This document shows positions 580-18,800 of a DNA stretch of 33,417 nucleotides, piece after piece (positions within the stretch are counted from its first letter, which is position 1; every line of letters begins with the position of its first letter). Under the pieces are notes generated by a model. The model searched no databases. It saw nothing but the letters and a program-made list of their open reading frames with translations, and had not been told where the DNA came from. The position numbers and the translations under genes are program-made. The DNA comes from a virus (taxonomy: Duplodnaviria > Heunggongvirae > Uroviricota > Caudoviricetes). The DNA lies in IMG/VR virus record IMGVR_UViG_3300017992_000017, positions 1-33,417 of that record. The stretch is one strand, 5' to 3'.

Positions 580-1701
580 ATGCCGTTTACCGGCAAGGCA
601 GTTTACGATACAGGCAATTGGAGCGAGATCAAAGAGGATGTGAGCCAGCTCATCTCCATGATCTCGCCCAAGGCCACTCCTCTCCTGGATGCTCTGAGTC
701 CTCCCGAGTACGAGGCTCAGAGTGTCCTTCACTCTTGGTTGGATGAGACGCTCAACCCGAATACGGTTGTGTCCTCGACCGATGCTAGCACATCGGGCAC
801 GGCGATCGGTGTTGTGGCTTCGGATGCTGGTCCTCTGACCTTCCTGACGGCGGGTACGATCCTGAAGAACCGCAGCACGGGCGAGTTCCTCCAGGTGAGC
901 GCGATCTCCGGGAGTACCATTACGGTATCCCGTCAGTTCGGTTCGACGTCGATGTCCACGGTTGCTGCCGGAGTCACGTTCGAGGTGATCTCGGATGCGG
1001 CACTCGAAGGCGCGGACGTCACCACGGACATCTCTCGTCCGCGAACCGCCGTGAGCAACTACTGTCAGTTGTTCAAGAAGGACGTCATCATCAGCGGTAC
1101 CGAGATGGCCGTTGCTCATCACGGGGTCGCCAACGAGTACGATCACCAGAAGCGCAACCGTATCGTCGAGTCGTTGCGTGACCTGGAGAAGGTCGTGATC
1201 CAGGGCAAGCTCTCTGGCAACACGATCGGGTCGAGCTCTGCGTGGCGAACGCTGAAGGGTCTCTGGGACTTCGTGCCTGCGACCAACGCCACCTCGACGG
1301 CCACCTTGACCCCCTCCATCCTCGACAGCGTCATCAAGCTGGCGTGGGACGAGGGGGCCGAGGACCTCGACTTGATCGTCTGCGATGCGAACTGGAAGGG
1401 GTACATCGACGCCTTCAACAACAGTCGCACCCAGGTCGAGAACCGTGACGAGCTGTTCAAGCAGCGTGTGACCTACTACGCGGGTTCGTACGACGAGATG
1501 CGTGTCGTGCGGAGCCGGTGGATGCCGCAGAACAGCTTGATGGTCCTGTCAAGCGAGCGGTGCCACGTGGTCCCGATGCGTGGTCGGTCGTTCCACCACG
1601 AGTCGGTGTCCAAGACGGGCGACTCGGTCAAGGGCATGATCCTCGGCGAGTACACCGTCGAGGTCCGGAACGCTGCGGGTATGGCCAAGGCATACGGCTA
1701 G
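580..1701 (+). CDS. Major capsid protein (HK97 fold, SU10_MCP/DUF5309-like) with an inserted beta domain
   Basis: GGAGG at 567-571 before ATG 580; motifs LISMISPKATPLL, HSWLDETL, ALEGAD, NYCQLFKKDVIISGT, RDLEKVVIQG and GMILGEYTVEVRN match DUF5309-type capsids; followed by a strong terminator. Confidence 0.88.
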   Translation: MPFTGKAVYDTGNWSEIKEDVSQLISMISPKATPLLDALSPPEYEAQSVLHSWLDETLNPNTVVSSTDASTSGTAIGVVASDAGPLTFLTAGTILKNRSTGEFLQVSAISGSTITVSRQFGSTSMSTVAAGVTFEVISDAALEGADVTTDISRPRTAVSNYCQLFKKDVIISGTEMAVAHHGVANEYDHQKRNRIVESLRDLEKVVIQGKLSGNTIGSSSAWRTLKGLWDFVPATNATSTATLTPSILDSVIKLAWDEGAEDLDLIVCDANWKGYIDAFNNSRTQVENRDELFKQRVTYYAGSYDEMRVVRSRWMPQNSLMVLSSERCHVVPMRGRSFHHESVSKTGDSVKGMILGEYTVEVRNAAGMAKAYG

Positions 1702-4104: not shown

Positions 4105-6384
4105 ATGGCAACAGTCACCACTAATGTTGGCACGCGGTCTGCGGAAAACGTAGACATCAGTAGCGTTGCAGGGGCGGGGAGCCCTTGGACAGTAACGCTG
4201 AGTGGCGCCCCGTCCAATACGGCTATCGGAGACACGTTGACTGACGAAGCCGGTACGCCTGATTCCTTTCTTATTACCGGGATCAGCGGCAGCGACTTGA
4301 CGGTGGTGGATGCTTACGGAGTAGGCTCAGCCCCCGATGATTCCGCTACGTCGCAGGCTACAACCGTTCGCACTTTTGCCACGCCCACCGCCTTTGAAGC
4401 AGAACTAGACAACACCGATTTCTTCCCCGCGTCTTCAGATGCCGTTGCCGATATGTACGACGATTCGGCATTTTCAGATTCCCAGGTGCTTATTGACAGT
4501 GGCACAGGCTTGACGAGTGTTACGCTCAAAGCAGCAAGCGGAGAGGAACATGGGGGTGTTCCCGGTGCTGGAGTGCGGTTTACTTCGACGGCCAACGACG
4601 AGCGAATATATCGTACAGCCGCCGTAACCGTAAACATCCTGGACATCGAAGTGGATGTTAGCGGCGGGGACCAGAATAACCAGAAAGGGGTTATTGCGTC
4701 CAACAAGGCGGCCACTAATCTGATTATGAAAGTGGCCCGTTGCATTGTTCATGACATAGCAGGCGGCGGTAATGTGAAAGGCATTGGCCAGTATAGGGGG
4801 GCGATGACAATAGAAAACTGCCTCGTGTTCGACATCATATCCGACGAAACTTCAACAGCGTGGGGCATTTCAGCGGATGATCAATACCGAAACGCTGTCA
4901 TCAATAACAACACTGTTTACAACATCGGGTGCGACAACGAGGGCGCATCGGCAGATCCATACGGGATCATTTTTGAAGATGATCCTCAGCATACGGTGCA
5001 AAACAACTTAGTTGGCGGGGTATTCACGGATGGATCAGGAGACGCCTACGATTACAGCCATACGTCCCCAAGCAACGCCACGGTAAACACCAACGCCAGC
5101 GAAGACGCGACCGCCCCCGACCCGATCACCGGCAACCCGATAGTTCCCGCCGATGAGTTCAACAGTATTGGCGGGGAAGAGTTCTGGCTGAAAGACACCG
5201 ACGCAGAAAGTTACGGTGCAGGTACAGACCTCGGAGCGGACTATGGCGAAGACCTGAGCGGGTTCAATCGCCACACGGACGACACTTACGACCCGTGGGA
5301 TGTTGGGTGCTTTGAGCTGCAGGAGTTAGCGACCGGGACGACCTACGACGAGTCCCTCACGCTCGCTACCCAGGCGACGGCAACATGGTCGGAGACGCTC
5401 ATCCTTCCTGCCGGGTTGACTCTTGCTGCTTCGGCCGGTGTGACTGAGCTGGCCAATCTCGTTATGGGAACCTCGTTGTCTCTGGCTACCTCGGCGGGTG
5501 TCTCGGAAGGACAAAATCTGACAATTCCCGAAACATTGAGTGCAAGCATACTGTCCGGCCTTACGCTAGCCGGTATTCGTGTTGTGTCGGATAGTGTCAC
5601 GCTTGCCGTCCAGTCGGGGATGTCGTTGACGGATGCGTTGGTTGCTGCGGCGGCGTTGAGTGCGGCCGTCGAGGCGGGTCTGGCTCAAGATGCGTCCCTG
5701 GTCCTCCCCGACGCGTTGTCCTTGGCCGTGACTGCCGGGTTGAGCGAGACCCTTGGTACTTTCTACGAACAGGCGTTATCGGCCGGGGTGACTGCCGGGT
5801 TGACGTTGGACAATGAGGCCATCCTCCAAGCTCTCCTGACAGCAGCTGCTCAGGTGGGGACCACGCTCGACACGACGGCGATTCTGGGCACGGCCATGAC
5901 GCTGGCTGCTCAGGTGGCCGCGTCCTTGGCTGGCTCGGCGCAGAAGGATGTGTCCCTGACCTTGGCGGCGTCTCAGGGACTGACACAGACTTCGGAGAGG
6001 ATCGTCGACGACGCGCTGGCCCTGGCGGTGACCGGGGACTACGCATTGGACACACAGGCTGACTTGGCCGCGTCGATTACGTTCGCGGTTCAGCAGAGCA
6101 TGGACCAGGCGACCGGTTCCATCCAGTCGGTCTTGCTGTCGCTTGGCGTGGCGCAAGAGATCGCGTGCAGTCTTGGTGGCACGTATGAGGAGGCTCTATC
6201 GCTTTCGGTACAGCTCTCTTTGCTCCGTGCGATGGCGTCTGCTACCGGTCCTCCGACGTTGATCCGTGCCGTGCTTGAGGGACTCACGTTACCGGGTGCG
6301 TCGGGTGAGACACTGACAAAGAGTGACCTGTCCTCAGAGTCGTTGGCGAATAGCGACTTGGATGACGAGACACTGACGAACTAG
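4105..6384 (+). CDS. Fibre/spike-like virion protein: right-handed beta-helix (pectin-lyase-like) region plus 20-aa repeat shaft
   Basis: Beta-helix-type segments (CIVHDI, IENCLVFDI, INNNTVYNI, VQNNLV) and a WDVGCFE terminus, then 15 x 20-aa repeats. Confidence 0.65.
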   Translation: MATVTTNVGTRSAENVDISSVAGAGSPWTVTLSGAPSNTAIGDTLTDEAGTPDSFLITGISGSDLTVVDAYGVGSAPDDSATSQATTVRTFATPTAFEAELDNTDFFPASSDAVADMYDDSAFSDSQVLIDSGTGLTSVTLKAASGEEHGGVPGAGVRFTSTANDERIYRTAAVTVNILDIEVDVSGGDQNNQKGVIASNKAATNLIMKVARCIVHDIAGGGNVKGIGQYRGAMTIENCLVFDIISDETSTAWGISADDQYRNAVINNNTVYNIGCDNEGASADPYGIIFEDDPQHTVQNNLVGGVFTDGSGDAYDYSHTSPSNATVNTNASEDATAPDPITGNPIVPADEFNSIGGEEFWLKDTDAESYGAGTDLGADYGEDLSGFNRHTDDTYDPWDVGCFELQELATGTTYDESLTLATQATATWSETLILPAGLTLAASAGVTELANLVMGTSLSLATSAGVSEGQNLTIPETLSASILSGLTLAGIRVVSDSVTLAVQSGMSLTDALVAAAALSAAVEAGLAQDASLVLPDALSLAVTAGLSETLGTFYEQALSAGVTAGLTLDNEAILQALLTAAAQVGTTLDTTAILGTAMTLAAQVAASLAGSAQKDVSLTLAASQGLTQTSERIVDDALALAVTGDYALDTQADLAASITFAVQQSMDQATGSIQSVLLSLGVAQEIACSLGGTYEEALSLSVQLSLLRAMASATGPPTLIRAVLEGLTLPGASGETLTKSDLSSESLANSDLDDETLTN
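5350..6249 (+). repeat. 15 tandem degenerate 20-aa repeats (protein level)
   Basis: ESLTLATQATATWSETLILP / AGLTLAASAGVTELANLVMG / TSLSLATSAGVSEGQNLTIP ... EALSLSVQLSLLRAMASATG; register kept without gaps over 900 nt. Confidence 0.85.
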
Positions 6385-6481: not shown

Positions 6482-7021
6482 ATGAATGACGCGATACAAA
6501 AACTCAAGATGAAAACCGTCTACCGGTTTGAGTGCTTTGACAAGGACGGGAATCTCAAGTGGGTCGAGGAGCTCAAGAACCTGGTTACCAACGAGGGACT
6601 GGACGACCTTCTGGACAAGTACCTGAAAGGCTCCGGCTACACGGCTGCCTGGTACGCCGGGTTGATCGACAATGATGGATTCACGGCCATTGCTGCGGGT
6701 GATACGGCAGCCAAGATCAACACGACGGCCAATCCCCCGACCACGAACGGGTGGCAGGAGCTGGATGACTACGACGAGGCTACGCGTGAGACGATTACGC
6801 TCGGGTCCGTGAGTGGTCAGAGCGTGGATAACTCAGCCAGCAAGGCCGAGTTCACGATCAATGCCACCAAGACCGTCAAGGGTGCGTTCGTGATTTCCAA
6901 CAGCACGATCGGTGGAACCTCTGGTGTCCTCTACGGTGCGGGTGCTTTTGGTTCGACCCGGTCCGTGGTTGACGACGACGTGGTTCGGCTGACCGTGACT
7001 TGTACTGCCGCCAGCGCATAA
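6482..7021 (+). CDS. Virion structural protein (fibre-associated, mycobacteriophage Gp80-like family)
   Basis: GGGAGAGG RBS before ATG 6482; motifs ECFDKDGNLKW, NLVTNEGLDDLL, WYAGL, AEFTI, GAF, GVLYGAGAF and DVVRLTVT are typical of this widespread phage family. Confidence 0.65.
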   Translation: MNDAIQKLKMKTVYRFECFDKDGNLKWVEELKNLVTNEGLDDLLDKYLKGSGYTAAWYAGLIDNDGFTAIAAGDTAAKINTTANPPTTNGWQELDDYDEATRETITLGSVSGQSVDNSASKAEFTINATKTVKGAFVISNSTIGGTSGVLYGAGAFGSTRSVVDDDVVRLTVTCTAASA

Positions 7022-7030
7022 GCGAGGTGG

Positions 7031-7969
7031 ATGATGGCGTTATCTGAAGCAGCGGCGACTCTTCTTGAGGCGACGACCGGGTTGTACTCGGCCACCTTGA
7101 AGGACGAGAACGATACGGTCATCAGTTACGCCGATCTCGATACGCTCACCGTGACGTACTACAACAAGGCGGATGGGTCGATTATCAACAGTCGAACCCA
7201 GCAAGACGTCTTGAACAAAAACAACGTCACGGTGAGCGAGGCGGGGGTTCTCGAGTGGGAGATCCAACCGGCTGACACGGTCATTGTCGACACCACGTTG
7301 ACGCCGGGACAGAAGGAAACCCACGTTGCGTTGTTCGAGTGGACGTACGACTCGGGGACGAACTCGGGACGGCACGAGCTCACACTCTACGTCAAGCAGC
7401 TCAACGAGGTGACGCTTTCGGCTGGAGCGACGTTGGTCTCCTCGTACGGGGGTGCGGCGGCCAACACCTACTGCTCGCTGACGGAGGCCAATAGCTTCAT
7501 CACGACGGCGATCTTGGACAACTCGGCGTGGAACAGTGCCAAGGTTGCTGAGAAGGCTGCGGCGCTTCTGCAGGCGACCCGGGAGATCGACTCGAGGAAC
7601 TACATCTACGGCCGGTACTATACGGATCAGAGCCTGTCCTTTCCCCGTGCACAGACAACGGGATCAAACATCACGTTGACGACTTCCACGCTTCATACCG
7701 TGGCGTATACGCAGCAGAGAGAGGCCGTTCGTCAGGCGTGTTGTCACCAGGCTGTTTGGCTGCTGAGGAATTCCGGCCGTAACGACATGCTGGAGACGAT
7801 CCTCCAGGGAGTGACCCGGTTCTCCAAGCGTGTCGGTCCGATCTCCGAGTCGTATCAGTTTGGAGCGTCTGGTGGAGGTGCCGGTGCTGGGGGTGGGAAT
7901 CCTCTCTGTCCGGATGCGAGACGGCTGTTGGCAACCTGGTACTGCGGTCCTCGAGTTGTGAGAGCGTGA
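7031..7969 (+). CDS. Head-tail adaptor (DnaT_2-like) fused to an N-terminal Ig/BppU-like beta domain
   Basis: C-half has ANTYCSLTEANSF, ALLQATREID, YYTDQSLSFPR and VRQACCHQA, typical of phage DnaT-like connectors; N-half is beta-rich (GVLEWEIQPADT). Confidence 0.7.
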   Translation: MMALSEAAATLLEATTGLYSATLKDENDTVISYADLDTLTVTYYNKADGSIINSRTQQDVLNKNNVTVSEAGVLEWEIQPADTVIVDTTLTPGQKETHVALFEWTYDSGTNSGRHELTLYVKQLNEVTLSAGATLVSSYGGAAANTYCSLTEANSFITTAILDNSAWNSAKVAEKAAALLQATREIDSRNYIYGRYYTDQSLSFPRAQTTGSNITLTTSTLHTVAYTQQREAVRQACCHQAVWLLRNSGRNDMLETILQGVTRFSKRVGPISESYQFGASGGGAGAGGGNPLCPDARRLLATWYCGPRVVRA

Positions 7970-8313
7970 TGTTTCTCGACGTAACCAAGTACCTGAACCA
8001 TACCGTCCAGTACTGGCGGGTAACGAAGACAAGGCACGGGGTGACCTCAGCGTCCTCCGTGACCACCTTGTCTTGTTTTGCGTACTTCGGGGAGCGGGAG
8101 CTGACCAAGGAATCTCCCCGAAGAACCAGCACGCAAGGGTGGAACATTGTGTTTGGGACCGACGCAAGGACGTTGCTGACCAAGGGGGATCATATTCGGA
8201 ACCTGGTGGATCAGGACGGGGTTACGGTGATCACCTCGGCAACGGTGGTCTCGGTGGCTCCTTACCGTCATTGGGGTGAAGGACACACGGCAACGGTAAT
8301 CGAGGTGGAGTAG
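7966..8313 (+). CDS. Head closure/stopper protein
   Basis: 115-aa beta-rich protein immediately after the adaptor (GTGA overlap); positional and size match. Confidence 0.55.
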   Translation: MMFLDVTKYLNHTVQYWRVTKTRHGVTSASSVTTLSCFAYFGERELTKESPRRTSTQGWNIVFGTDARTLLTKGDHIRNLVDQDGVTVITSATVVSVAPYRHWGEGHTATVIEVE

Positions 8314-9224
8314 TGGCTAGTTTTGGCGATCAACGCATCGACCAGCTCGTAAGCACCTTCAGCCAAGCGTCTGAAGAGCTTGCCGAGTTGATGTCGCAAA
8401 TGGTGGAGGCCGATCGAGAAGACCGGCACGCCATCTACGCGCTGATCCTGGCCATCCTGCTCCGGCTCCGTAAGGCTGCTCAGGAGTGGTCCGAGGTTAC
8501 CGTGGCTGGGATCTACGCCGAAGCACTCCAAGAGGCAGCCGATGATCTGATCTCACAGGGGTATCTCGGCGACCTGATCGGACCGGACCAAGGCACCCAC
8601 GAGGTCCAGCGTATGGCCGACTCCTTCCTTGCCGATACGGAAGGTGCTCTGTCCAACGTCCGGAGTGTGGCTGTTCGACTGAGAAATGGACAGACCGATC
8701 GGAGGTTTCTCACCGGTACTCTGGTGGTTGGGTTGTCGGCTGGTGGGGTACGAGCGATCAAGGCCAGACGACGGATCAAGCAATCACTCCGGGAAGGGAT
8801 GATGGCGATGCTGGCCAAGGACGGGAAGATCTACCACTATTCTCTCGACTACTACGTGGGGATGGTGGCGCAGCAGATCAAATATAAGACCATGTCGCGT
8901 GCCGTGTTGAACCAGATGCAGTTCACCGGACACGACCTGGTGCAGATCTCCCCCAACCCCTCGACCATTGGAGACTATTGCGACGAGTACAGGGGGAAGG
9001 TGTTTAGCATCTCCGGGACCGATCCACACTATCCTCCGTTAGCAGAGACACCATCGGGAGGACCACCGTTTCATCCTCACTGTCACCATACGTTACAGCC
9101 GTATGTGGATAGAGCGATTGCAGAGATGGGACCTGTGGATCCTAAGTTCTTGGAGATGGGACGAACGCCGGGGATGGGACCAAACGATTTCCAAAAACTG
9201 TGGCGAGCGAAGCGAGCCGGATGA
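8313..9224 (+). CDS. Minor capsid / head morphogenesis protein (Phage_min_cap2 / SPP1 gp7-like)
   Basis: YSLDYYVGMVAQ, HDLVQIS, DYCDEYRGKVFSISG and GPPFHPHCHHTLQPY (HPxCxH) motifs. Confidence 0.82.
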   Translation: MASFGDQRIDQLVSTFSQASEELAELMSQMVEADREDRHAIYALILAILLRLRKAAQEWSEVTVAGIYAEALQEAADDLISQGYLGDLIGPDQGTHEVQRMADSFLADTEGALSNVRSVAVRLRNGQTDRRFLTGTLVVGLSAGGVRAIKARRRIKQSLREGMMAMLAKDGKIYHYSLDYYVGMVAQQIKYKTMSRAVLNQMQFTGHDLVQISPNPSTIGDYCDEYRGKVFSISGTDPHYPPLAETPSGGPPFHPHCHHTLQPYVDRAIAEMGPVDPKFLEMGRTPGMGPNDFQKLWRAKRAG

Positions 9225-9685
9225 CCAAGAACTGGAACGTCAACAACCTGGAGGAGATGGCCGATATGGTGGAGGGGATCCCTTTCCGTATCCATAAGGC
9301 GGCTCTCCAGTTTGTTGCCGAAGCGAGTGTGCATGCGGCCAGGAGAAGTGAGCTCAACGCTCCTATCCTCACGGGGATGTTGCGTGCTGGGTGTTATCCG
9401 ATCGAGACCAAGGTACGCGGAGATGATTTCATTGGGGGAGTGGCCGACGACGTGCCGTATGCTGCGTACGTGCATGCGATGGTGGCTCCCGAAGGACCAA
9501 AGGGTTTGGGTCCTGTGAGTCGTCAGCAGCCAAAACAACCCGAGGGCGGTCCTATGGGTGGGTACATCGAAAACACCGTTCTCTGGTGGGTGCCTACGTA
9601 TGATCGTGCCTTGCGTGAGATGGTCGACAAAGCGATTAAGGGAAGAGACGTGGCAGGATCGCCGTTACTGAGTTTGGGAGGTTAA
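9221..9685 (+). CDS. HK97 gp10-like neck/tail-completion protein
   Basis: ATGA overlap at 9221-9224; NAPILTGMLRAG (APvdTGxLRxS-like) and VPYAAYVH motifs. Confidence 0.72.
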   Translation: MTKNWNVNNLEEMADMVEGIPFRIHKAALQFVAEASVHAARRSELNAPILTGMLRAGCYPIETKVRGDDFIGGVADDVPYAAYVHAMVAPEGPKGLGPVSRQQPKQPEGGPMGGYIENTVLWWVPTYDRALREMVDKAIKGRDVAGSPLLSLGG

Positions 9686-9707
9686 ACCGAAAAACGGGGA
9701 TCCCAAG

Positions 9708-12700
9708 ATGTTGATTGCATTTGTTACGAGTGGGTTGCCATTCACTGGCGACAGTTTGAAGACCGGAGCACTGGGTGGTTCCGAGACGGCGTTGGCTTCG
9801 ATGGCCAGGTCCTTTGCCAAGCGAGGACATGACGTCCGCGTCTACTGCGAGTGTCCTGCGCCGGGTACGTACGACGGGGTGCGGTACTTTCGGAACACGG
9901 AGTTTGCTGGTCAGGCTGCGGTGATCGCGTTCGACGTGGTGATTGCCAGTCGTTGGAATCAGTTCCTCACGACCCCGTCCGATGCGGGTTTGAACGTGCT
10001 CTGGCTCCATGACGTGCTGACCGACGAAGCGGCCTTGATGGGTGGTTTGCACGCGACCGATCTGATCATGTGCCTGAGCGACTACCACATCGGCCTTTAC
10101 ACCGACGCACTTCCGGACCTGGCGCCACATATCTGGAAGACTCGTAACGGGATCGACCCGGAGCTGATCCAAGCCAATCTGCGTCAGAAGGTCCCGGGCA
10201 AGATGATCTACTCGAGCCGCGCCGAACGCGGACTCTTGTATCTTTTGCGGGACATTTTTCCGAGAATCCTCCAACAAGTTCCTACGGCTAGGTTGCACTA
10301 TTGTAGTTACCAGGTCAACAACATGGCCGTGCCTGACGCCGTGTCGCAGATCCAGGAGACGTGCCAGCAGATCGCGGCGCAGTATTCTGGAGGCGTTGTG
10401 GACATGGGATCGCTCTCCAAGGAGGACCTGTACCGGCAGATCTCGAGCTCGCAGCTGATGGTTTATCCGAGTGATTTCCCTGAGATCTCACCGGTTCGTG
10501 GAGACACATTGATTGAGACCTTGGATGGTCGGAAGCAGATTAAGGATCTTGTAGGTCAGTCTGGCTTCAAGGTCTACTCCTGCGACAAGGAAGGGAGGCT
10601 CTCGTTGTCCGAGGTCAAGGGCGTCTTCTTGACTCGGAAGAACGCAGAGATGGTCAAGCTCACGGTTCGTCCGGGAAGGGGCCGGAACGCCAACAAGGAG
10701 AAGGTTCTTCACTTGACGCCAGACCATGAGGTGATGTTGCGAGACGGAACGTACAAACCCGCAGGTCAGTTGATGGCAGGCGACCGTGTCAAAGCGTTCC
10801 ACCGTCGTCGGAACGAGCATGGTAACGGGTATGACACGGTGGGTGTGACGGACTGTCCGGTGTTTCCGGAACACCGGTTTGTTGCCTCAAAGACGTTGGG
10901 GAGAGAGATTCAAGACGGTGAGGTTGTGGATCATCTAGACGGCGACACGCACAACAACACCCCGGAGAATCTCGCGGTCACAACACAGTCTCAACATTGG
11001 CACGATCATTGGGCACGGATGACTCCCGAGCAGTACGCCGAGACGTGCAAGCGTCATAAGGAAGGCTTGCATCGGCACATGCAGGAGAACCCGGAGGAGT
11101 TCCGACAGTCACGTCAGCGGGCCGTACAGGCGATGTGGGATCGGTACAACTCTCTCTCGGACGAGGAGCGAAAGGCGTGGTTGAAACACCGCGTGGAGTG
11201 CCGTCAAAAGAAGATGTCCAACCACGTCGTCGTCTCGGTCGAACCTGCTGAGTCGGCCGATGCGTTTTGTATGGAAGTTGAACCGGATCATAACTTTGTG
11301 GCCAATGGAATCTTTGTCCACAACTGCATCGGCGCCATCGAAGCTCAGGCGTGCGGCACTCCCATCGTGACGACCAACGACTTCGCACTGGCCGAGACGG
11401 TGGGTTACGGGGGGATCAAGCTCGACGGGAGTCCTCGGGACAAAGACTACCAGGACCGGTTCGTCGATACCGTGGTGCGTCTCCTGAGCGATGAGGAGGA
11501 GTACCGGAGGCTGTCGGAAGGAGGACCCAAGTACGTCAAGGAGATCGGGTACGAGTGGGACGCGATCGTCGGTCAGTGGGAGCACAAGTTCAAGGAGATG
11601 CTCGAACAGCGGTGGATCCAGAACCGGGAGAAGGTCATCACCAACCTGGTCCGGAAGAACGATCTCCAGGTTGCTCGGTTGATGGCTATGAAGTCAGGGA
11701 TGCAGCACCGGGTGAGCGAGATCGAGGCGCAGTCCACTCACGTCTCGGAACGTACGGAGACCGAACCAGAGGCGGTGAAGCGGGATATCGACGCCATGAT
11801 CCCGAGGTTTCACAAGCTGGTGGAACTTCTGAAGTTGTCGGAAAAGACGCCGACGAGCATTGTCGAGAAGGATGCCACCGACGCGTCGTACGGGTTGTTT
11901 CTAGCCAAGATGTTTCCCGAAGCCAAGGTGGTTCTCGAAGCGACCACAGAAGAGACCTGCGAGCGGTTGCTGGGATACGTGGACGAAACAGGAGCGGAAG
12001 TCGAGGTCACTACAGAGTTGCCGGTTGGCGAGAAGTACGATCTTGTGATCCTCCCGGACGTTCTGGATGCGGTGTTTGAGCCGTCTGCGTACCTGAAGCA
12101 CCTGACCAGTCTGGTGGCTGACGGCGGGCAGATTGCGGTCACTGTTCGTGTCGGGACCGATAACGTCTTTCCTGGGGCGGCTCCGAACAGGCTCTGGAAC
12201 TTCGACTACCAGGACCTTGCCAACCTCTCACTACACGATGAGGAGTTTCGGGCAACCTTCCACGACGAGAAGATCTCCGACGCTGGGGAGATTGTTGGTC
12301 ATTGGATCGGTCTCCTCCCCAAGAAGGAGAAGTACGGCAAGCTCGATATCAAGGCCAAAGCGCTCCGTACCCGTCCGTATCAGTCCCTTTGTGCGACGGT
12401 GTGTGTGAAGAACGAGGAGGAGTGGATCCGGGGTGTGGTCAAGAGTATCGAGAAGGTGTGCGACCGTATCCTGGTGATGGTGGATAACGAGTCAACGGAT
12501 CGTACCAGGGAGATCGCCGAGGAGCTGGGGTGTGACGTCCGTTCGGTGACATTTGACAACTTCGGACAGGTGCACAACGACGCTCTGGAGGCCGTGACCG
12601 AAGACTGGGTTCTGTCCATTGATGGGGATGAGAGACTCCTGGGCGCCAACAAGCTCCGGGGTTACCTGAAGTCGGCGATCTTCGAGGGGTATGCGTTACG

Positions 12701-13484
12701 GCAGAACCACCTCATGCTCGATCTGCACGGGACGTTTGATCTTCCGGTGCGGGTCTTCAGGAACCGGTCACATTACCGGTACACGGGATACATTCACGAA
12801 CATTGCGAGGATACGTCGAAGGGTCCGTTCGACAATCCGATCTCCCCGACACTGATGATCGAGGAGGTTGACATCGCTCATTATGGGTATGTCAACGAAC
12901 GCATGCGAAGACACAAGTGCTCCAGCCGAAACATGGAGCTCTTGATTCGAGACGTCCAGGACAATGCTTCACGAGGTCGACTCCTAACTCGTGTCCTGGT
13001 CATCAGAGACTATTTGAACATGGTCAAGTGGTCTCTGGAAAAAACGGGAGGCGCCGTTACACCGGGATCGAAGGAACACGTTCTGGTGAGTGCGGCGATT
13101 ACAGACTACCGGCACTTCTTCGGTGATCGGTCACATAGGTACCACGACATCTCCTTCCCCATGTACCAGGAAGCTTTAGAGATCCTGGGACGCAATGGGA
13201 TTCCGTACCTTGACCGAAAGACCCCTCCTTTCCAGGTGGGACTCGCTCTGACGGGTGCTGTGGGTGGTCTTGAATCCTCGGACGTCGCTCCTCAAAAGCG
13301 GTGGTTCGTGGACGACTCAGAGCTCATGGAGTTCTTGGCTAACTGCGGTGCCAAGATGGTTCTCCAACTGGGTCTCGCAGGTGAAGAGGAGTACAAGGAT
13401 GCACTGACCTTCCGGAAGCCGTCTGTTGAAGAGCCGCTCCCGGATGCTGTCGAACTGCTGGGATGGGGGCTCGGGGTGGCATGA
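9708..13484 (+). CDS. Intein-containing multidomain glycosyltransferase: GT4 (GT-B), degenerate SAM-methyltransferase fold, GT2 (GT-A)
   Basis: GT4: LGGSETAL, RGHDVRVY, WLHD, RNGID, YSSRAERGL, E-x7-E (EIS|CIGAIE) split by the intein. MTase-like ~11800-12310: YDLVILPDVL...LVADGGQIAVTV. GT2 from ~12381: VKNEEEWI, DNESTDRTREIA, DWVLSIDGDE (DxD). Confidence 0.9.
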   Translation: MLIAFVTSGLPFTGDSLKTGALGGSETALASMARSFAKRGHDVRVYCECPAPGTYDGVRYFRNTEFAGQAAVIAFDVVIASRWNQFLTTPSDAGLNVLWLHDVLTDEAALMGGLHATDLIMCLSDYHIGLYTDALPDLAPHIWKTRNGIDPELIQANLRQKVPGKMIYSSRAERGLLYLLRDIFPRILQQVPTARLHYCSYQVNNMAVPDAVSQIQETCQQIAAQYSGGVVDMGSLSKEDLYRQISSSQLMVYPSDFPEISPVRGDTLIETLDGRKQIKDLVGQSGFKVYSCDKEGRLSLSEVKGVFLTRKNAEMVKLTVRPGRGRNANKEKVLHLTPDHEVMLRDGTYKPAGQLMAGDRVKAFHRRRNEHGNGYDTVGVTDCPVFPEHRFVASKTLGREIQDGEVVDHLDGDTHNNTPENLAVTTQSQHWHDHWARMTPEQYAETCKRHKEGLHRHMQENPEEFRQSRQRAVQAMWDRYNSLSDEERKAWLKHRVECRQKKMSNHVVVSVEPAESADAFCMEVEPDHNFVANGIFVHNCIGAIEAQACGTPIVTTNDFALAETVGYGGIKLDGSPRDKDYQDRFVDTVVRLLSDEEEYRRLSEGGPKYVKEIGYEWDAIVGQWEHKFKEMLEQRWIQNREKVITNLVRKNDLQVARLMAMKSGMQHRVSEIEAQSTHVSERTETEPEAVKRDIDAMIPRFHKLVELLKLSEKTPTSIVEKDATDASYGLFLAKMFPEAKVVLEATTEETCERLLGYVDETGAEVEVTTELPVGEKYDLVILPDVLDAVFEPSAYLKHLTSLVADGGQIAVTVRVGTDNVFPGAAPNRLWNFDYQDLANLSLHDEEFRATFHDEKISDAGEIVGHWIGLLPKKEKYGKLDIKAKALRTRPYQSLCATVCVKNEEEWIRGVVKSIEKVCDRILVMVDNESTDRTREIAEELGCDVRSVTFDNFGQVHNDALEAVTEDWVLSIDGDERLLGANKLRGYLKSAIFEGYALRQNHLMLDLHGTFDLPVRVFRNRSHYRYTGYIHEHCEDTSKGPFDNPISPTLMIEEVDIAHYGYVNERMRRHKCSSRNMELLIRDVQDNASRGRLLTRVLVIRDYLNMVKWSLEKTGGAVTPGSKEHVLVSAAITDYRHFFGDRSHRYHDISFPMYQEALEILGRNGIPYLDRKTPPFQVGLALTGAVGGLESSDVAPQKRWFVDDSELMEFLANCGAKMVLQLGLAGEEEYKDALTFRKPSVEEPLPDAVELLGWGLGVA
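10491..11324 (+). mobile_element. Intein (278 aa) with HNH homing endonuclease, in the GT4 active-site motif
   Basis: Block A-like PVRGDTLIETLDG, block B LTPDH, HNH_3-like EHRFVA...VDHLDGDTHNNTPENL, block F AFCMEV, block G HNFVANGIFVHN followed by Cys+1 (11325-11327). Removing it restores FPEISCIGAIEAQACG. Confidence 0.92.
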
Positions 13485-13684
13485 TTACGCACAAAAAGCA
13501 ACTCGATAGCGTCCTCCGTACGGTGCAAGATCTCCAGAAGGTCAAGTACTTCGGGAGGATGATGTGCCAGTTTGCTGACGGTAACGTGGTCATGATCCGG
13601 CTAGAGCAGACGGTCCATCCAGAAGCATTACTTGATGGAGCACCGTTAGTGGTGGCGCCGGGCGAACCGGTGCCTGAGCAATGA
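13481..13684 (+). CDS. Small protein, DUF2292/YezD-like
   Basis: ATGA overlap with the GT stop; YFGRMMCQFADGNVVMIRLEQTV resembles the 'FG.V.i...dG.Vv.I...ek' pattern. Confidence 0.5.
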   Translation: MITHKKQLDSVLRTVQDLQKVKYFGRMMCQFADGNVVMIRLEQTVHPEALLDGAPLVVAPGEPVPEQ

Positions 13685-13699
13685 CCGTGGAGGTGATCT

Positions 13700-13795
13700 A
13701 TGGCCAAGCGTTGTGTGAAGCTGAAGATACCAAAGCGGCACCAGAGGAAAGTGTCACGAATTAAGTCTCGGCAGGCAAAGCGACGTAAGCGATGA
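13700..13795 (+). CDS. 31-aa highly basic peptide MAKRCVKLKIPKRHQRKVSRIKSRQAKRRKR (absent from ORF track)
   Basis: GGAGGTGATC Shine-Dalgarno at 13689-13698; fills the gap between genes; stop overlaps the next start (ATGA 13792-13795). Confidence 0.72.
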   Translation: MAKRCVKLKIPKRHQRKVSRIKSRQAKRRKR

Positions 13796-14187
13796 GCTAC
13801 CGACACCTAGTTGAACCTTGGCTCACTTCGATCTGTTCGTACGTGGGCAAGAACGGCTTCGGGACGGTTGCAACGGATCTGTTTGCACCGCACATGCCTG
13901 AGGAGCCGGTTACATGCACGGCGGTTGTGCCGACCGGGGGTATTCGGTCCGGGGGTAATCCCGTTCGCCGAAGACTCGTGCAAATCCAGCATCGCCGACC
14001 GTTTGAAGATCTCGGTTCGGGGCTGACCTTTATTGGGTCGCTCTCCGGTCTCTTCGACGATCAGTGGAACAAGCTGGACGCGGACCATCTCGGGCGTTTT
14101 GAGCTGCAATCGGAACCGGGTCGCTACATCCTGGACGGAGCCGGAAACGTGATCTTTTCTTTGGACTACGTGTTTACCAGTACGTAA
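13792..14187 (+). CDS. Tail terminator / 'minor capsid' family neck protein
   Basis: GTVATDLFAPHMPEEP...VVPTGG...VQIQHR pattern; directly precedes the tail tube gene. Confidence 0.68.
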   Translation: MSYRHLVEPWLTSICSYVGKNGFGTVATDLFAPHMPEEPVTCTAVVPTGGIRSGGNPVRRRLVQIQHRRPFEDLGSGLTFIGSLSGLFDDQWNKLDADHLGRFELQSEPGRYILDGAGNVIFSLDYVFTST

Positions 14188-14250
14188 CCGTGTAAGCGCA
14201 CAGAACAACTGACGAGGGCGCGGTGAGGTCGTTTTCATGGGAGATGCGCA

Positions 14251-14898
14251 ATGCCATCTTATGTGAATGCAATTGTTGACCGAGAGGTCTCGATTGCGAT
14301 CGAGCGGTTTTTGATCGCTCCCTACCCGCAGACGTTCACTGCCGCGCGCGTGGACCTCGATAGCCTGCCCTCGGGATATATTGACCTTGGGCCGGTTGTT
14401 GAGGACACGCCGACTGTGACCGTCTCGCGTGAGAAGTATGTGCTAGAGACTGGAATCCCGAAGGTCATCCAGTACGAAGCAATCATGGGTGTGTCCGGGA
14501 CCGTGGAGTTCTCTCTGTGGTCCAACTCCTTCCACAAGGTGCAGTATGCCTTGGGGAACGAGTGGTACACCTACGATAGCACGACGCAGACTGCTCTGAC
14601 CACGCTGACGACGATCGCCAGCGGACAGGTCTTCTCGCAGTTCATCGGGACCAAGGACATCAACTACTACGCTCTTCTGGGTGTGGCTGACTTCTTGAAC
14701 GGCGTCCAGGTCGTTCATGAGTTCGGCAAGGTGGTTCCTTCCGAGGACTGGACCGAGACGTTCCGTCCGGATCAGGCCGGTCAGGTTCCTATCACGTTTG
14801 ACTGCGTGGGGTACCAGACGACCCTGGGGAGCTGCACCGAGCTGATCCTCGGCAAGCGGCACTACATCGGGGAGGACGGTATTACCTGCGTGACCTAG
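14251..14898 (+). CDS. Major tail tube protein
   Basis: GGGAG RBS; YIDLG...TPTVTVSRE, GTVEFSL and VPITFDC patterns; followed by a terminator and then the chaperone and tape measure genes. Confidence 0.78.
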   Translation: MPSYVNAIVDREVSIAIERFLIAPYPQTFTAARVDLDSLPSGYIDLGPVVEDTPTVTVSREKYVLETGIPKVIQYEAIMGVSGTVEFSLWSNSFHKVQYALGNEWYTYDSTTQTALTTLTTIASGQVFSQFIGTKDINYYALLGVADFLNGVQVVHEFGKVVPSEDWTETFRPDQAGQVPITFDCVGYQTTLGSCTELILGKRHYIGEDGITCVT

Positions 14899-14939
14899 CA
14901 TGCGGGGCGCCTAGTGTAAGGCGTCCCGTGGAGGTTTGT

Positions 14940-14989
14940 GGGGGCGCAGGACGTGCCATGCGGTTCTCCTGCGTCCCCTTCTATTTCTT
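14940..14989 (+). terminator. Rho-independent terminator after the tail tube gene
   Basis: gggggcgcagga (14940-14951) pairs with tcctgcgtcccc (14967-14978), then ttctatttctt; a second hairpin at 14902-14929 lies just upstream. Confidence 0.7.
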
Positions 14990-15012
14990 GAGCGAAAAAC
15001 GCAAAGAGGTGA

Positions 15013-15594
15013 GTGATGAGTGACAAACAAAACGACTTCGAGAATCAGCTGGACCAGGAGATTGCTCTGAACGCAAGTCTCCTCTCTCCCGAGCAGCAGT
15101 CCAGGCTCTCCAAGGTTCTCTTTCCTACAACGCACACCGACAAGATCCAGCTGGGAGGGAAGGAGAGGACGTTGCATCCTCTCCCGGTCAAGTTCTCTCG
15201 TCAGCTGCATGAAGTTGTGCTTCCCTTCGCGTCCCGTGCCGAGGAAGAGTCCACCAAGAAAGAGGGGGACGGTTCACCGTACGAGGTCGACAAGGATCTT
15301 CTCAAGGCGGTTCTCGAAGCTGTCCGTGTGCTTTGTGATGCGTACGGCGAGGACTGGGACGATGTGAAAGGCAAGCTCGAGCGGGAAGAGCTGGTCTTGT
15401 CCGAACTTCAGAATGCCGTCGTTCAGCAGCAAGAGCTCCAGGGGCAGTCGGATTTTACGCTCACTCCCTTGCGAGTCGCGATCAAAGTGATGAAGGCGAG
15501 GGAGATCGTGGAGATCATGCAGCAGGACGACTTTGGGACTGCGTCTATTGGGCAGCAGCCGTCGAGCGATTCGGATGCTCCTTCGACGAGCTGA
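15013..15594 (+). CDS. Tail assembly chaperone (G-like)
   Basis: Between tail tube and tape measure; GGKERTLHPLPVK ('i.gkey.l' type) motif; acidic and helical. Confidence 0.75.
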   Translation: MMSDKQNDFENQLDQEIALNASLLSPEQQSRLSKVLFPTTHTDKIQLGGKERTLHPLPVKFSRQLHEVVLPFASRAEEESTKKEGDGSPYEVDKDLLKAVLEAVRVLCDAYGEDWDDVKGKLEREELVLSELQNAVVQQQELQGQSDFTLTPLRVAIKVMKAREIVEIMQQDDFGTASIGQQPSSDSDAPSTS

Positions 15595-15839
15595 TCTCCA
15601 AACACACGGACGGGCAGATCATGCTGCTCGTCTACGGTTTTAACGAGCTGGAGAAGATCCGGAATGAAGCGGTGGAGCAGACGACCGAGTCCCGTAAGAA
15701 ACCACGTGCGCTTCAGTCTGCTCCACAACCTTCCAAGGCCAAGTCTGCTCCAGCCAACAAAGTGCCATGGAGTGAACTGAAGAAGATGACTCCCCAACAG
15801 TACGAGGCGTATCTTGCGGGGTCCGTTAGGGGACTGTAG
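15534..15839 (+). CDS. Tail assembly chaperone extension (T-like), probably expressed by -1 frameshift
   Basis: The -1 frame is open from 15339 to 15839; protein-like WDCVYWAAAVERFGCSFDELISKHTDGQI precedes ATG 15621 with no ATG/GTG/TTG upstream in frame. The start given is approximate. Confidence 0.62.
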   Translation, partial: WDCVYWAAAVERFGCSFDELISKHTDGQIMLLVYGFNELEKIRNEAVEQTTESRKKPRALQSAPQPSKAKSAPANKVPWSELKKMTPQQYEAYLAGSVRGL

Positions 15840-15860
15840 CTCTACTCCGAGGTAGCTGAC

Positions 15861-18800
15861 ATGCTCCAGGCATCCGGCGTCAAGTTCAATATCACGGCCA
15901 ACGTCACCGCAACTCGTGGCATCACCCGGCTGAACAAGGTGATGCGCGAGTTGGTTGGCGTGGTGAACTCGGGTGGGAAGAACTGGGAGAAGTTTCTGGA
16001 TGCTGTGGGGCGGCTGGGTTCTGTTAGTGCTAGGGTCTCGAAGATTACGGAGAAGCAGGCCGGTTCGGTCCAGCGGTTGTCCAAGGCGACTCAGCAAGAG
16101 ACGAAGAGCGTTCAGCAGTCTTTGTCCGTTACGGAGAAACTGATTGGTGTGAAGCAGAGAGCGGCCAAGGCGGCAGATCAACTGGGGACCGCTGTCTACC
16201 GGGAAGCGACGGCCATACAGCAGAGCGTTCAATCAGCACAGAGTGCTATCAGCGTTCACGATCGTTTGACGGCATCAGCGAACAAGGCCGGTAAAGCGAT
16301 GCAGCGACTCGGTACGGGATCTGCATCTGGTCGTGCCGTAGTGACTTCAGGTGCTGCTGGTGATGTAAACAAGCGTTTGGCTGGGCAGAGGGTTGAGCCA
16401 CGGACTGACAAGATCAAAGCAGCTACTCAGGCGATGCACACCTATACCACGGCTGTCTACGCTGCTCAACACGCGGTTATGGCTTTGGGTGCTGCTTGGG
16501 CTACTTGGAAACTCGGTCATCTTATCAAGGAAACGACGCTCCTTGCCGGTCGTGTCGAGAACTTGCGTACGATCATGTACAACGTCGGCGTGAATGCCGG
16601 GTATACGCACTCCGAGTTGGACGTGTTGGAGGGGAAGATTCGGAAGCTGGGTATTACAACCAGGCACACACGGGAGGCTATGACGCTCCTGGCTCGAAAC
16701 AATCTGGACGTGGCCAAGGGTTTTCAACTGGCTCGTATCGCTCAGGACGCGGCGGTGATTGCAGGTGAAAACTCCTCGGAAGCGTACGAGAAGCTGGCCA
16801 TCGCGATCCAGCGACTCGACACCCGACTGCTCCGTAACCGAGGTATCTTGATCAACCTGCGGAACCTCTATCAACAGGTAGCCGTAGCAACCGGTCGTGT
16901 GGAGACGACTCTGACCGCAGCCGAGAAGCAGGAGATCCTCTTGAACGAGGTGATCCGAAAGGGTGTCCAGACGATGGGTACCTACGAGTCGGCCATGAAC
17001 GATGTGTTTAAGCAGTACACATCGTTGGTGCGGTATACGGAGGAGGCTGCTCGTGTTTTCGGCGAGCAGTTCTTGCCGGTCTTTGAGGTGGTTGTGAAGA
17101 CGATGACCGGGTTTTTCAAGTGGTTCTCGGCTGATGACCGGCATCGTGGGTGGCATCTCGCGGCAGCTGGCGCAGCGTCTTTTGTGGCTATCTTAGGCAC
17201 GCTGACGACGGTTGTCCTTGGCGCAAAGCTCGCCATGAGTGCGTACACGCTCGCCGTGCTCGCCTCAAAGGCGGCAATGGATGCTGCAAAGGTGTCTTAC
17301 CTGGCAATGACTGTTGCTATGGCCAAGAATCCTCTGACACTTGTTGTTCTGGCGTTAAGTGCGGTGGCGACGGGACTTGTCATGCTGGCAGCGAACGCCA
17401 GAAGTGCTAAGCAAGAGTTGGAGGACTTGAAGAGCGAGGCCGCCGAGACAGCCGTGTCTCTCCATGGGTTGCAGCGCGCGTATCGTCGTATGGATGAGTT
17501 GTCTGCAAAGGGAGATTCATCTCGGGAGTCGTTGTTGCGACAGAAGATGGCGCTGGAGGACCTGAAGGCTGTTGCGCGTGATACGGGGATTGAGATTTCG
17601 GATCTTGCGTCTGAAGAGGAAACACTACAGACCTTGCGTGAACAAGGTATTGGTATTGAACAAACATCTGCGGAGACGGCTGCGCAATACAATGACGCAG
17701 TTTCGCAGCAGCGGGTGGAAGTGAATAGACTTGCGAAGGAGATACAGGAACTTGGGAAGCAGGAACGGGCACAATACGCACAGTGGAGGACTGGCAGGGG
17801 GTCGTTTGGCGGATACAACCGTATGGACAGTTCGCAGATGCGGTCGCTCAAGGAACAGTGGCGACAATCGATGCGTGATCTTGCGGTGCTGGAGGACAAA
17901 CATACGGCCTATATGGAAGTAGCATCTGCTGAGCGGATCCGCATTACACAAAAGGCTCTTGACGAGCAGCATGTCGCGTATCAGCTGGCGCTTCGTGCTG
18001 AAAACGCATTGCATAGGGAACGGGCTAAGATGTTCAAGGACGAAGGTCTTGAGATTTTAGATACATTAGACGAATACGGGAAGAAGCTGCGTACTGTGTT
18101 TGTTAGCGAGGAACAGATCTTCCAACAGGCTGCCGATCGGTGGGAGACGCAACGAAAGAAGATCGCCGAGACATTCAAGGAGAAGCGTGATCAGGCAGCT
18201 AACGCTACGGAGCTCGCGGAGGTTGAAACGCAGGAGGCAGCAGCACTTCGTCAGATTCATGGGTTCATTCGGAGTGAGATGAGCCAGGAGTTGCGGGAGC
18301 GGATTAAGATCAAGAATGTTATGGAAGATAAATATGAGCTAGCGAAGTTACTTCGAGAAGAGCAAGAGCGGGAAGTTGGTTATCTCAAAGAGCGTTTGGA
18401 TTTGGAGGAGCAGGGCGTAGACTCAGATACTATTTCTGTGTTGCAGGAGCTGCGTAAGGAGCTCTTTCGACGACAACAAGCGATGGATGAGTACAATCGT
18501 CGGCTGGGTGTGGATACTAAGGAGACTGAACAGATTGAGCGTCGTCGACAGGAGATTCGTGCTGAGATTGCGGACTACGAGCAGCGTGCCAAGGCGATCG
18601 AAGACGCGGAGAAAAGTGCGAGTACCGACGCCGCTATTGAAGCTGCTGTGTCGCGTCGTATTGCGATAAACAAGGAGCGTGGTGCCGTTGAGGCATTACA
18701 GCAGGAGCTTGATCTTCTAAACGTGCAGTACGACGAGTCGTCCAAGACGCTTGCAGAGCGGATTGACATAGCGCGTCAGGCGGCTGCCGAGGATGAGAAG

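Follow-up and report, generated by a model that had tools for sequence, protein, structure and literature searches.

A fused GT4–GT2 glycosyltransferase, interrupted in one phage by an atypical intein, is widespread in phage structural modules and is a candidate virion glycosylation enzyme

To our knowledge, the only viruses for which glycosylated virions have been demonstrated are a few mycobacteriophages and giant algal viruses, and there the glycans shield the particles from antibodies. Among the latter, chlorovirus PBCV-1 encodes A064R, which combines two glycosyltransferase domains and a methyltransferase in one polypeptide and builds the virus's own capsid glycan. For the mycobacteriophages Che8, Corndog and Myrna, passages of two reports describe phage glycosyltransferases that modify capsid and tail tube subunits (PMC11600133, PMC12619734); a passage of the first pairs glycosyltransferases with an O-methyltransferase in the gene set of cluster O mycobacteriophages (PMC11600133), and a passage of the second places the glycans on C-termini (PMC12619734). 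Here we describe a gene (positions 9708–13484) on a 33,417-nucleotide stretch of DNA, hereafter the window, that makes up the initial 33.4 kb of a linear IMG/VR virus record 105.7 kb long, with an estimated completeness of 83%. Its product joins a GT4 glycosyltransferase, a methyltransferase-like domain and a GT2 glycosyltransferase, with an intein inserted in the GT4 part. It is a fused phage glycosylation enzyme with a wide distribution, and differs from the mycobacteriophage system, which consists of separate genes, and its intein departs from the way in which class 3 inteins are defined. The likeness to A064R is one of description only: A064R belongs to a eukaryotic giant virus, differs in domain order and families, and serves an N-linked glycan.

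The three-part build is shared throughout the family of the window protein (P0001; Table 1). A search of 5.8 billion proteins returned about 55 cluster representatives of 970–1030 amino acids with this architecture, and orthologs without the intein, about 980 amino acids long, are 43–49% identical to the window protein; one of them, P0002 (985 amino acids, 43–47% identical), occupies the same slot in a second viral contig. Across 45 aligned members, the GGSE motif, an Arg/Lys and both Glu of the E-x7-E motif are invariant in GT4, as are two Asp followed by D-x-D-E in GT2, and the N-extein retains the GGSE, Arg/Lys and Glu residues. Pfam recognizes the GT4 half above curated cut-offs over residues 540–608 (Glycos_transf_1, 28.6 vs 26.4 bits; Glyco_trans_1_4, 28.6 vs 27), the Glycos_transf_1 matches being fuller in the intein-less orthologs, and comparison of a family profile with solved structures places this half near the generic retaining GT-B enzymes GlgM, PimB and MshA. 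Conceptual splicing yields an E-x7-E motif that reads E-ISCIGAI-E, with both Glu invariant in 45 relatives. No membrane segment was detected in the fusion protein (maximum Kyte-Doolittle value over 19 residues, 1.18).

Between the two glycosyltransferases lies a domain that an earlier interpretation made from the letters of the window alone (the sequence-only reading) overlooked: it had listed GT4 and GT2 correctly and left the kind of intein unstated. As judged by its profile matches, this domain is a true methyltransferase of class I in the deeper branches of the family, since in P0044 and P0036 it is matched by both Pfam and NCBIfam and the family profile matches solved S-adenosylmethionine (SAM) methyltransferases. 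In the window protein, Methyltransf_12, Methyltransf_23 and Methyltransf_31 reach 14–22 bits on residues 750–814, under their cut-offs of 27–30, and motif I reads EKDATDA vs DYGCG in P0044 and P0036; the closest kin are likewise degraded. Because the SAM site at motif I is degraded, the domain is probably inactive here.

The nearest solved relatives of the GT2 domain are GmaR, the flagellin O-linked N-acetylglucosamine transferase of Listeria monocytogenes (PDB 22ao), and SunS and ThuS, which are glycocin S-glycosyltransferases (PDB 7msp, 7msn, 7msk). Against solved structures, the family profile matches GmaR with an E-value of 1.7e-34 and ThuS and SunS with 1e-16 to 1e-18, and the next GT2 structures are far weaker (a partial match at about 4e-7, TarS-type at about 1e-3). 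The window protein searched as a single sequence also finds GmaR (E 4.3e-15 across 197 residues). An AlphaFold model of residues 874–1258 (predicted local distance difference test score, pLDDT, 93.7; predicted template-modelling score 0.88) retrieves SunS and ThuS chains as the top six matches in the PDB (E about 1e-15), followed by TarS at 8e-8; among Swiss-Prot models it retrieves a cyanobacterial GT2-TPR protein and SunS first, and then Rickettsia and lipopolysaccharide (LPS)-core GT2 enzymes. The motifs VKNEE, DNESTDRT, FDNF..N.AL and DWVLSIDGDE are all present in the translation and align with the same motifs in GmaR, and within DGDE the residues D99, D101 and E102 are invariant across the family. 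What is shared with GmaR, SunS and ThuS is thus a GT-A core with VKNEE, D..STD.T, DW....D.DE, IHE and HYGY..RN, followed by a helical domain. These sequence and model comparisons support placing the GT2 domain in the GmaR/SunS/ThuS group of polypeptide glycosyltransferases, which agrees with the assignment of its motifs, in the sequence-only reading, to the protein- or flagellin-glycosylating kind, although relatives with other acceptors exist. All three of these enzymes modify polypeptides directly, and by analogy with them the acceptor here would be a polypeptide. Unlike them, the window GT2 is the C-terminal part of a 980-residue fusion with GT4 and a methyltransferase-like domain, is phage-encoded within a structural module, and has no counterpart of the TPR/anti-repressor part of GmaR.

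Linkage of homologs to structural operons, on which the sequence-only reading had staked its proposal of virion glycosylation, holds in 13 of 13 contexts examined. Twelve of these contain the fusion: the window, seven other loci of the same SU10-capsid, long-tailed clade (L002, L003/4, L005, L006, L007/8, the P0044 contig and L089, the last in a complete genome of 89.5 kb that has terminal repeats), and four unrelated phages (L009, L010, L095 and L098) that carry versions 25–31% identical. A Mu-type portal and Phage_tube_2 accompany the fusion in L009 and L098; in L095 its companions are Mu Gp36 and Phage_tube_2, and genes for UDP-glucose dehydrogenase and another GT2 lie upstream of it. The distant fusion in L010 (2282–8925) sits among Laminin_G/RCC1 fibre-like genes beside a sulfotransferase, an adenosine 5′-phosphosulfate (APS) kinase, a Methyltransf_21 gene and a TPR protein, neighbours that suggest a sulfated glycan. 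The thirteenth context is L094, an SU10-portal phage in which three adjacent genes follow the capsid genes (7001–10258): an intein-bearing GT4, a 222-residue methyltransferase and a 249-residue GT2. Its GT4 carries the same Pro1 intein, and immediately downstream the opposite strand encodes a free-standing HNH protein. As separate neighbouring genes, these provide an independent line of evidence that the GT4, methyltransferase and GT2 activities work together. The genome of the complete relative G001 yields no GT2 or GT1 match outside the fusion, so that no other phage glycosyltransferase appears to be needed.

On the window itself, the structural module reads rightward from capsid through tail, and the GT4–GT2 double glycosyltransferase breaks the order of neck, tail terminator and tail tube genes, as the sequence-only reading had it and as the open reading frame, Pfam matches and neighbour identities bear out. 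The neck protein (9200–9685) itself has zero Pfam or PHROG matches, and its fold model (pLDDT 60) was too poor to search, so that route was dropped. Its homolog L006:7468–7959 narrowly passes the cut-off of PF04883, HK97-gp10_like (22.0 vs 21.4 bits), and on this ground the order from gp10-like protein to tail terminator to tube is truly interrupted. No promoter- or terminator-like sites stood out in the intergenic gaps, where counts were not above those in shuffles, and co-transcription of the fusion gene with the structural genes is plausible.

Given this context and the acceptors of the nearest relatives, we lean towards the view that the product of the gene glycosylates the phage's own structural proteins. 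The enzyme would be soluble and late-expressed, and would act in the cytoplasm of the infected cell. Once spliced, its GT2 domain would put a first sugar, drawn from a host uridine diphosphate (UDP)-sugar, on a Ser or Thr (or Cys) of a virion protein, the GT4 domain would add a second sugar, and in deeper relatives the middle domain would methylate the glycan, the SAM site being apparently lost here. The analysis shows the identities of the domains, the limits of the intein and its mobility, and the conserved place of the gene; we infer the protein acceptor, the order of action and the choice of virion protein, as we do the splicing chemistry discussed below. Candidate acceptors are rich in hydroxyl residues: Ser and Thr make up 18–23% of the capsid protein, the adaptor, the product of a 115-residue gene and the tube protein, vs about 11–12% of most other window proteins. 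In the capsid protein the share is 19.8%, with 10 of 20 residues being Ser or Thr at positions 107–126, and the variable loop of the tube protein, WYTYDSTTQTALTTLTT (residues 105–124), is Thr-rich. The best 20-residue stretches contain 10 Ser/Thr alike in capsid, adaptor and tube, which singles out no acceptor. The earlier proposal that a capsid insertion and a tube loop are marked as acceptors is therefore not supported, as the adaptor stretch is equally rich in Ser/Thr (10 in 20). The supposed capsid insertion is a conserved domain in relatives.

Several observations weigh against a virion-directed function. Position in a structural module is the strongest argument for it, and is circumstantial. 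The Swiss-Prot relatives of the GT2 domain include the LPS-core transferases KdtX, WaaE and LpsC. A Ser/Thr content of 18–23% is common in beta-rich virion proteins and points to no site, and neither the capsid protein nor the tube protein has a Ser/Thr-rich C-terminal tail; in this the window phage differs from the mycobacteriophage system, whose glycans are reported at C-termini. For the proposed splicing step, the counterpoint is that the intein lacks Trp at position B:12 and Thr at G:5, two residues of the class 3 definition.

The same kinship that suggests a polypeptide acceptor would also suit an enzyme that modifies a host target, such as flagellin, pilin, an S-layer protein or an envelope glycan, and thereby blocks superinfection or keeps progeny off lysed cells. 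GmaR, the closest solved relative, acts on flagellin, LPS-core GT2 enzymes are among the Swiss-Prot fold matches, and serotype-changing phage glycosyltransferases are well established (mentioned in PMC12619734). However, serotype-converting enzymes are membrane-bound and encoded in lysogeny or early regions, whereas the fusion protein has no membrane segment and keeps its head-to-tail position in 12 of 12 fusion contexts, unrelated phage types included, and we consider a host target unlikely. Still less can be said for an acceptor in the 31-residue basic peptide encoded downstream, which would be glycocin-like, in the manner of SunS, whose substrate is the peptide SunA encoded beside it. The GT2 domain resembles SunS and ThuS, and in six clade members a micro-gene follows the fusion and keeps the Ser in [IL]KSRQA, but the peptide has no leader, conserved Cys or helix-loop-helix pattern, no export gene lies nearby, no such micro-gene comes after the fusion in L009, L094 and L095, which are distant phages, and Arg/Lys-rich micro-proteins more often bind nucleic acid; a glycocin-like acceptor is thus very improbable.

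Glycosylation of the phage's DNA bases against restriction would fit the wide occurrence of DNA glycosyltransferases in phages (cited in PMC12619734). Yet the closest relatives of the enzyme act on polypeptides, it is encoded within the late structural module rather than amid nucleotide-metabolism genes, and tblastn matches in cultured phages fall only under terminase, HNH or DNA-polymerase annotations or in unannotated Listeria fragments of 4–6 kb, which leaves action on DNA scarcely credible. That tblastn search, of P0001 against 50,697 phage records, gave 13 partial matches and none in a mycobacteriophage or other actinophage; judging by relatives and composition, the host of the window phage is probably not an actinobacterium. 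Virion glycosylation thus stays the function that we favour, and a second set of glycan genes in the same genome appears to be separable from it. Outside the window, at 48.7–63.8 kb of the record (G000; L093, L096 and L097), lies a second glycan island, which encodes a NeuB-type nonulosonate synthase (61821–62696) and a radical SAM enzyme together with two cytidylyltransferases and two GT2 proteins. Searches of this genome for Epimerase, NTP_transferase, DegT and Epimerase_2 showed that all four are absent. NeuB was sought in the complete relative G001 and is also absent, though the fusion is present, which indicates that the fusion and the NeuB system are separable.

The intein lies exactly where the GT4 catalytic motif is interrupted. 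P0002 reads FPEIS followed directly by CIGAIEAQ, and the window protein holds 278 additional residues at precisely this junction, which match Intein_splicing (PF14890, residues 275–539, E 2.8e-13, 50.4 bits vs a cut-off of 35.8) and the NCBIfam family intein_Cterm (TIGR01443, 29.9 vs 15.6). We place its first residue at Pro262, because a reading with Ser at position 1 would shorten the motif to E-x6-E. In an alignment with the Mtu RecA intein, Thr337 and His340 correspond to B:7 and B:10, Val342 to B:12, Cys521 to F:4 (Asp in RecA) and Val537-His538-Asn539 to G:5–7, and Cys540 follows the VHN end at +1. An exhaustive HMMER search with the intein returned 23 representatives of a GT4-specific family; every one of them interrupts the same GT4 motif, and their hosts are fusion enzymes, stand-alone GT4 proteins of about 610–690 amino acids and other architectures. 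All 23 have [FY]-C-M at block F, TPDH followed by V, I or A at B:12, Val-His-Asn and Cys+1; 22 start with Pro1, and one starts with Cys1 and keeps the Cys at F:4. Two are mini-inteins of 147 and 156 amino acids that lack the nuclease (P0069, P0084 and P0087 are the Cys1 member and these two). Between P0001 and P0022, the splicing blocks are 70–72% identical and the exteins 42–50%. The conservation of the blocks in 23 members, two mini-inteins included, lends indirect support to splicing. A search of the literature collection consulted returned no description of inteins in glycosyltransferases.

The closest described counterparts are class 3 inteins, which are defined by a Trp-Cys-Thr triplet (PMC2807308, PMC5050341, PMC4031507); the prototype has Pro1 and an obligate Cys F:4 nucleophile, splices efficiently, and depends on Trp B:12, which is essential (PMC2807308). 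Like this prototype, the mycobacteriophage Bethlehem DnaB intein (PMC2807308, PMC4031507), the window intein has Pro1, Cys F:4, a His-Asn end and a phage origin, and it shares Cys+1 with one known member of class 3, Bvi IcmO. It therefore shares the absence of Cys, Ser or Thr at position 1 and the Cys at F:4. Unlike class 3, the GT4 family never has Trp at B:12 (Val here, V/I/A in the family) and has Val in place of Thr at G:5 in 23 of 23; blocks B and G look class 1, as in Mtu RecA, the host site is a glycosyltransferase motif and not a helicase or ATPase P-loop, and the nuclease is of the HNH type. Cys521 (F:4) would most likely attack the Ser261-Pro262 bond, after which the N-extein would pass to Cys540 (+1), Asn539 would cyclise, and E-ISCIGAI-E would be rebuilt. 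Because Trp B:12 and Thr G:5 are missing, the chemistry could differ from that of class 3, and the alternative is that Cys540 attacks directly, as in class 2.

The sequence-only reading saw GT4 as gated by splicing. One half of this stands: because the intein splits E-x7-E, GT4 is incomplete before splicing, and splicing is needed for a complete GT4 site. The other half, in which the intein is a conditional switch that senses redox state or metal and times or gates GT4 activity, fits the pattern of the intein less well. Both predicted nucleophiles are cysteines (Cys521 and Cys540), and two reports describe how oxidative stress and zinc affect a class 3 DnaB intein from Mycobacterium smegmatis (PMC6195587, PMC7360933). 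Against a switch, the intein is present in just 7 of the 52 fusion proteins compared and missing from the other 45, and on a maximum-likelihood tree of 52 exteins the seven bearers require at least five gains or losses, which well-supported branches force; bearer P0059 and non-bearer P0036 are close sisters on this tree. The intein also carries an HNH homing nuclease, recurs in stand-alone GT4 genes and other architectures, and matches its host gene in composition. From its sporadic occurrence on the extein tree, its HNH nuclease and its matching composition, the intein looks like a mobile homing element that the host gene tolerates rather than selects. Conditional splicing of the GT4 intein is possible, and a regulatory role for it improbable.

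Tentatively, and with rather less than even confidence that both parts hold at once, we propose that a single polypeptide that primes, extends and methylates carries out protein O-glycosylation as part of a widespread, undescribed virion sugar-coating in unrelated uncultured phages, and that the GT4 intein lineage (Pro1, Cys F:4, Val-His-Asn and Cys+1, with no Trp/Thr) reached splicing through a block-F cysteine independently of the monophyletic class 3, from class-1-like stock. If the proposed action of the enzyme is true, sugar-coated phage particles would be far commoner than thought, and a compact, self-sufficient enzyme would offer a one-gene tool for co-expression tests of virion glycosylation. 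The intein adds the catalytic motif of a glycosyltransferase to the known intein targets, which had been replication and ATPase proteins, and offers a natural test of splicing by a block-F cysteine without the Trp/Thr partners thought essential in class 3.

Table 1. Features of the fusion gene and the surrounding structural module. Coordinates are window positions unless a locus is named.
Feature	Coordinates	Strand	Basis
Major capsid protein, SU10 type; candidate acceptor	580–1701	+	PF17236, E 7e-68
Head-associated genes, one of them (4105–6384) for a 759-residue protein	between capsid and adaptor genes	+	module listing
Ad1-type adaptor	7031–7969	+	
Minor head protein	8313–9224	+	
Neck gene, HK97 gp10-like by homology	9200–9685	+	33% identical to L006:7468–7959
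Precursor of the GT4/methyltransferase-like/GT2 fusion (P0001), 1258 amino acids, 980 when spliced	9708–13484	+	open frame, Pfam
GT4 N-extein, residues 1–261, ends FPEIS, the first half of E-x7-E	9708–10490	+	alignment with intein-less orthologs
Intein, residues 262–539 (278 amino acids), Pro262 to Asn539	10491–11324	+	Pfam, NCBIfam, ortholog alignment
HNH nuclease in intein (HNH_3, residues 389–430)	~10872–10997	+	Pfam above cut-off
GT4 C-extein part, from Cys540 (+1), CIGAIEAQACGTPIV; second half of E-x7-E and sugar-nucleotide site	11325–11627	+	Pfam, family alignment
Class I methyltransferase-like domain, probably inactive (residues ~700–830)	11805–12197	+	sub-threshold Pfam
GT2 (GT-A) catalytic domain, DGDE as DxD	12372–12977	+	PF00535, residues 898–976, 37.2 bits
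Helical C-terminal domain of the GT2 half	12978–13481	+	confident model helices, conserved across family
67-residue gene; start overlaps the fusion stop codon (ATGA)	13481–13684	+	sequence
31-residue Arg/Lys-rich micro-gene; stop overlaps the tail-terminator ATG	13700–13795	+	upstream GGAGGTG
Copies of the micro-gene	L002 8772–8870; L003 ~12074–12175; L005 10928–11029; L006 11148–11234; L089 4459–4551		
Tail terminator (Phage_tail_terminator_6)	13792–14187	+	PF12691, 28.2 bits vs cut-off 23.8
Tail tube protein; candidate acceptor	14251–14898	+	Atlas 'major tail protein', feature score 0.97
Tape-measure-sized protein, 1826 amino acids	downstream of tube gene	+	

Two small genes separate the fusion from the tail terminator, and the sequence-only reading took both to be ATGA-coupled. 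This is right for the first, at 13481; the second has its own GGAGGTG and is ATGA-coupled only at its end, and from the letters of this interval it is most likely the strongly basic 31-residue frame of Table 1. Only L002 and L006 have homologs of the 67-residue product, which are 37–38% identical and lie at the equivalent position. An Arg/Lys-rich micro-gene of about 30 residues directly follows the fusion in the window, L002, L003, L005, L006 and L089, and these six clade members share the ending [IL]KSRQAxRRKR.

Single-protein locus searches returned nothing with the tail terminator and two loci with the capsid protein. A capsid-profile search returned 80 loci, in which the contigs of most close relatives end before the position of the fusion gene. 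One of these loci, L018, is a possible relative without the enzyme, but is a fragment estimated at 13% complete. An Aequorivita locus (L101) was set aside as a different bacterial glycosyltransferase architecture, not an ortholog.

In the wider module, the SU10-type capsid protein is paired with a long-tail module at 13792–21341; this capsid family is otherwise typical of short-tailed phages. Right after the capsid gene, a 130-residue open reading frame (1777–2169) gives a weak PHROG holin match (E 1.7e-6), an odd site for a lysis gene, and it may instead encode a small membrane-like or decoration protein. Elsewhere in the record, two extracytoplasmic function-type sigma factors lie at 55777–56874 of G000. 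The tube protein reaches template-modelling scores of 0.7–0.8 to tube families in an Atlas structure comparison. The tube protein of L006 (11662–12510) carries an insertion of about 55–70 residues exactly at the site of the Thr-rich loop of the window tube, which makes this loop a hot spot for surface variation.

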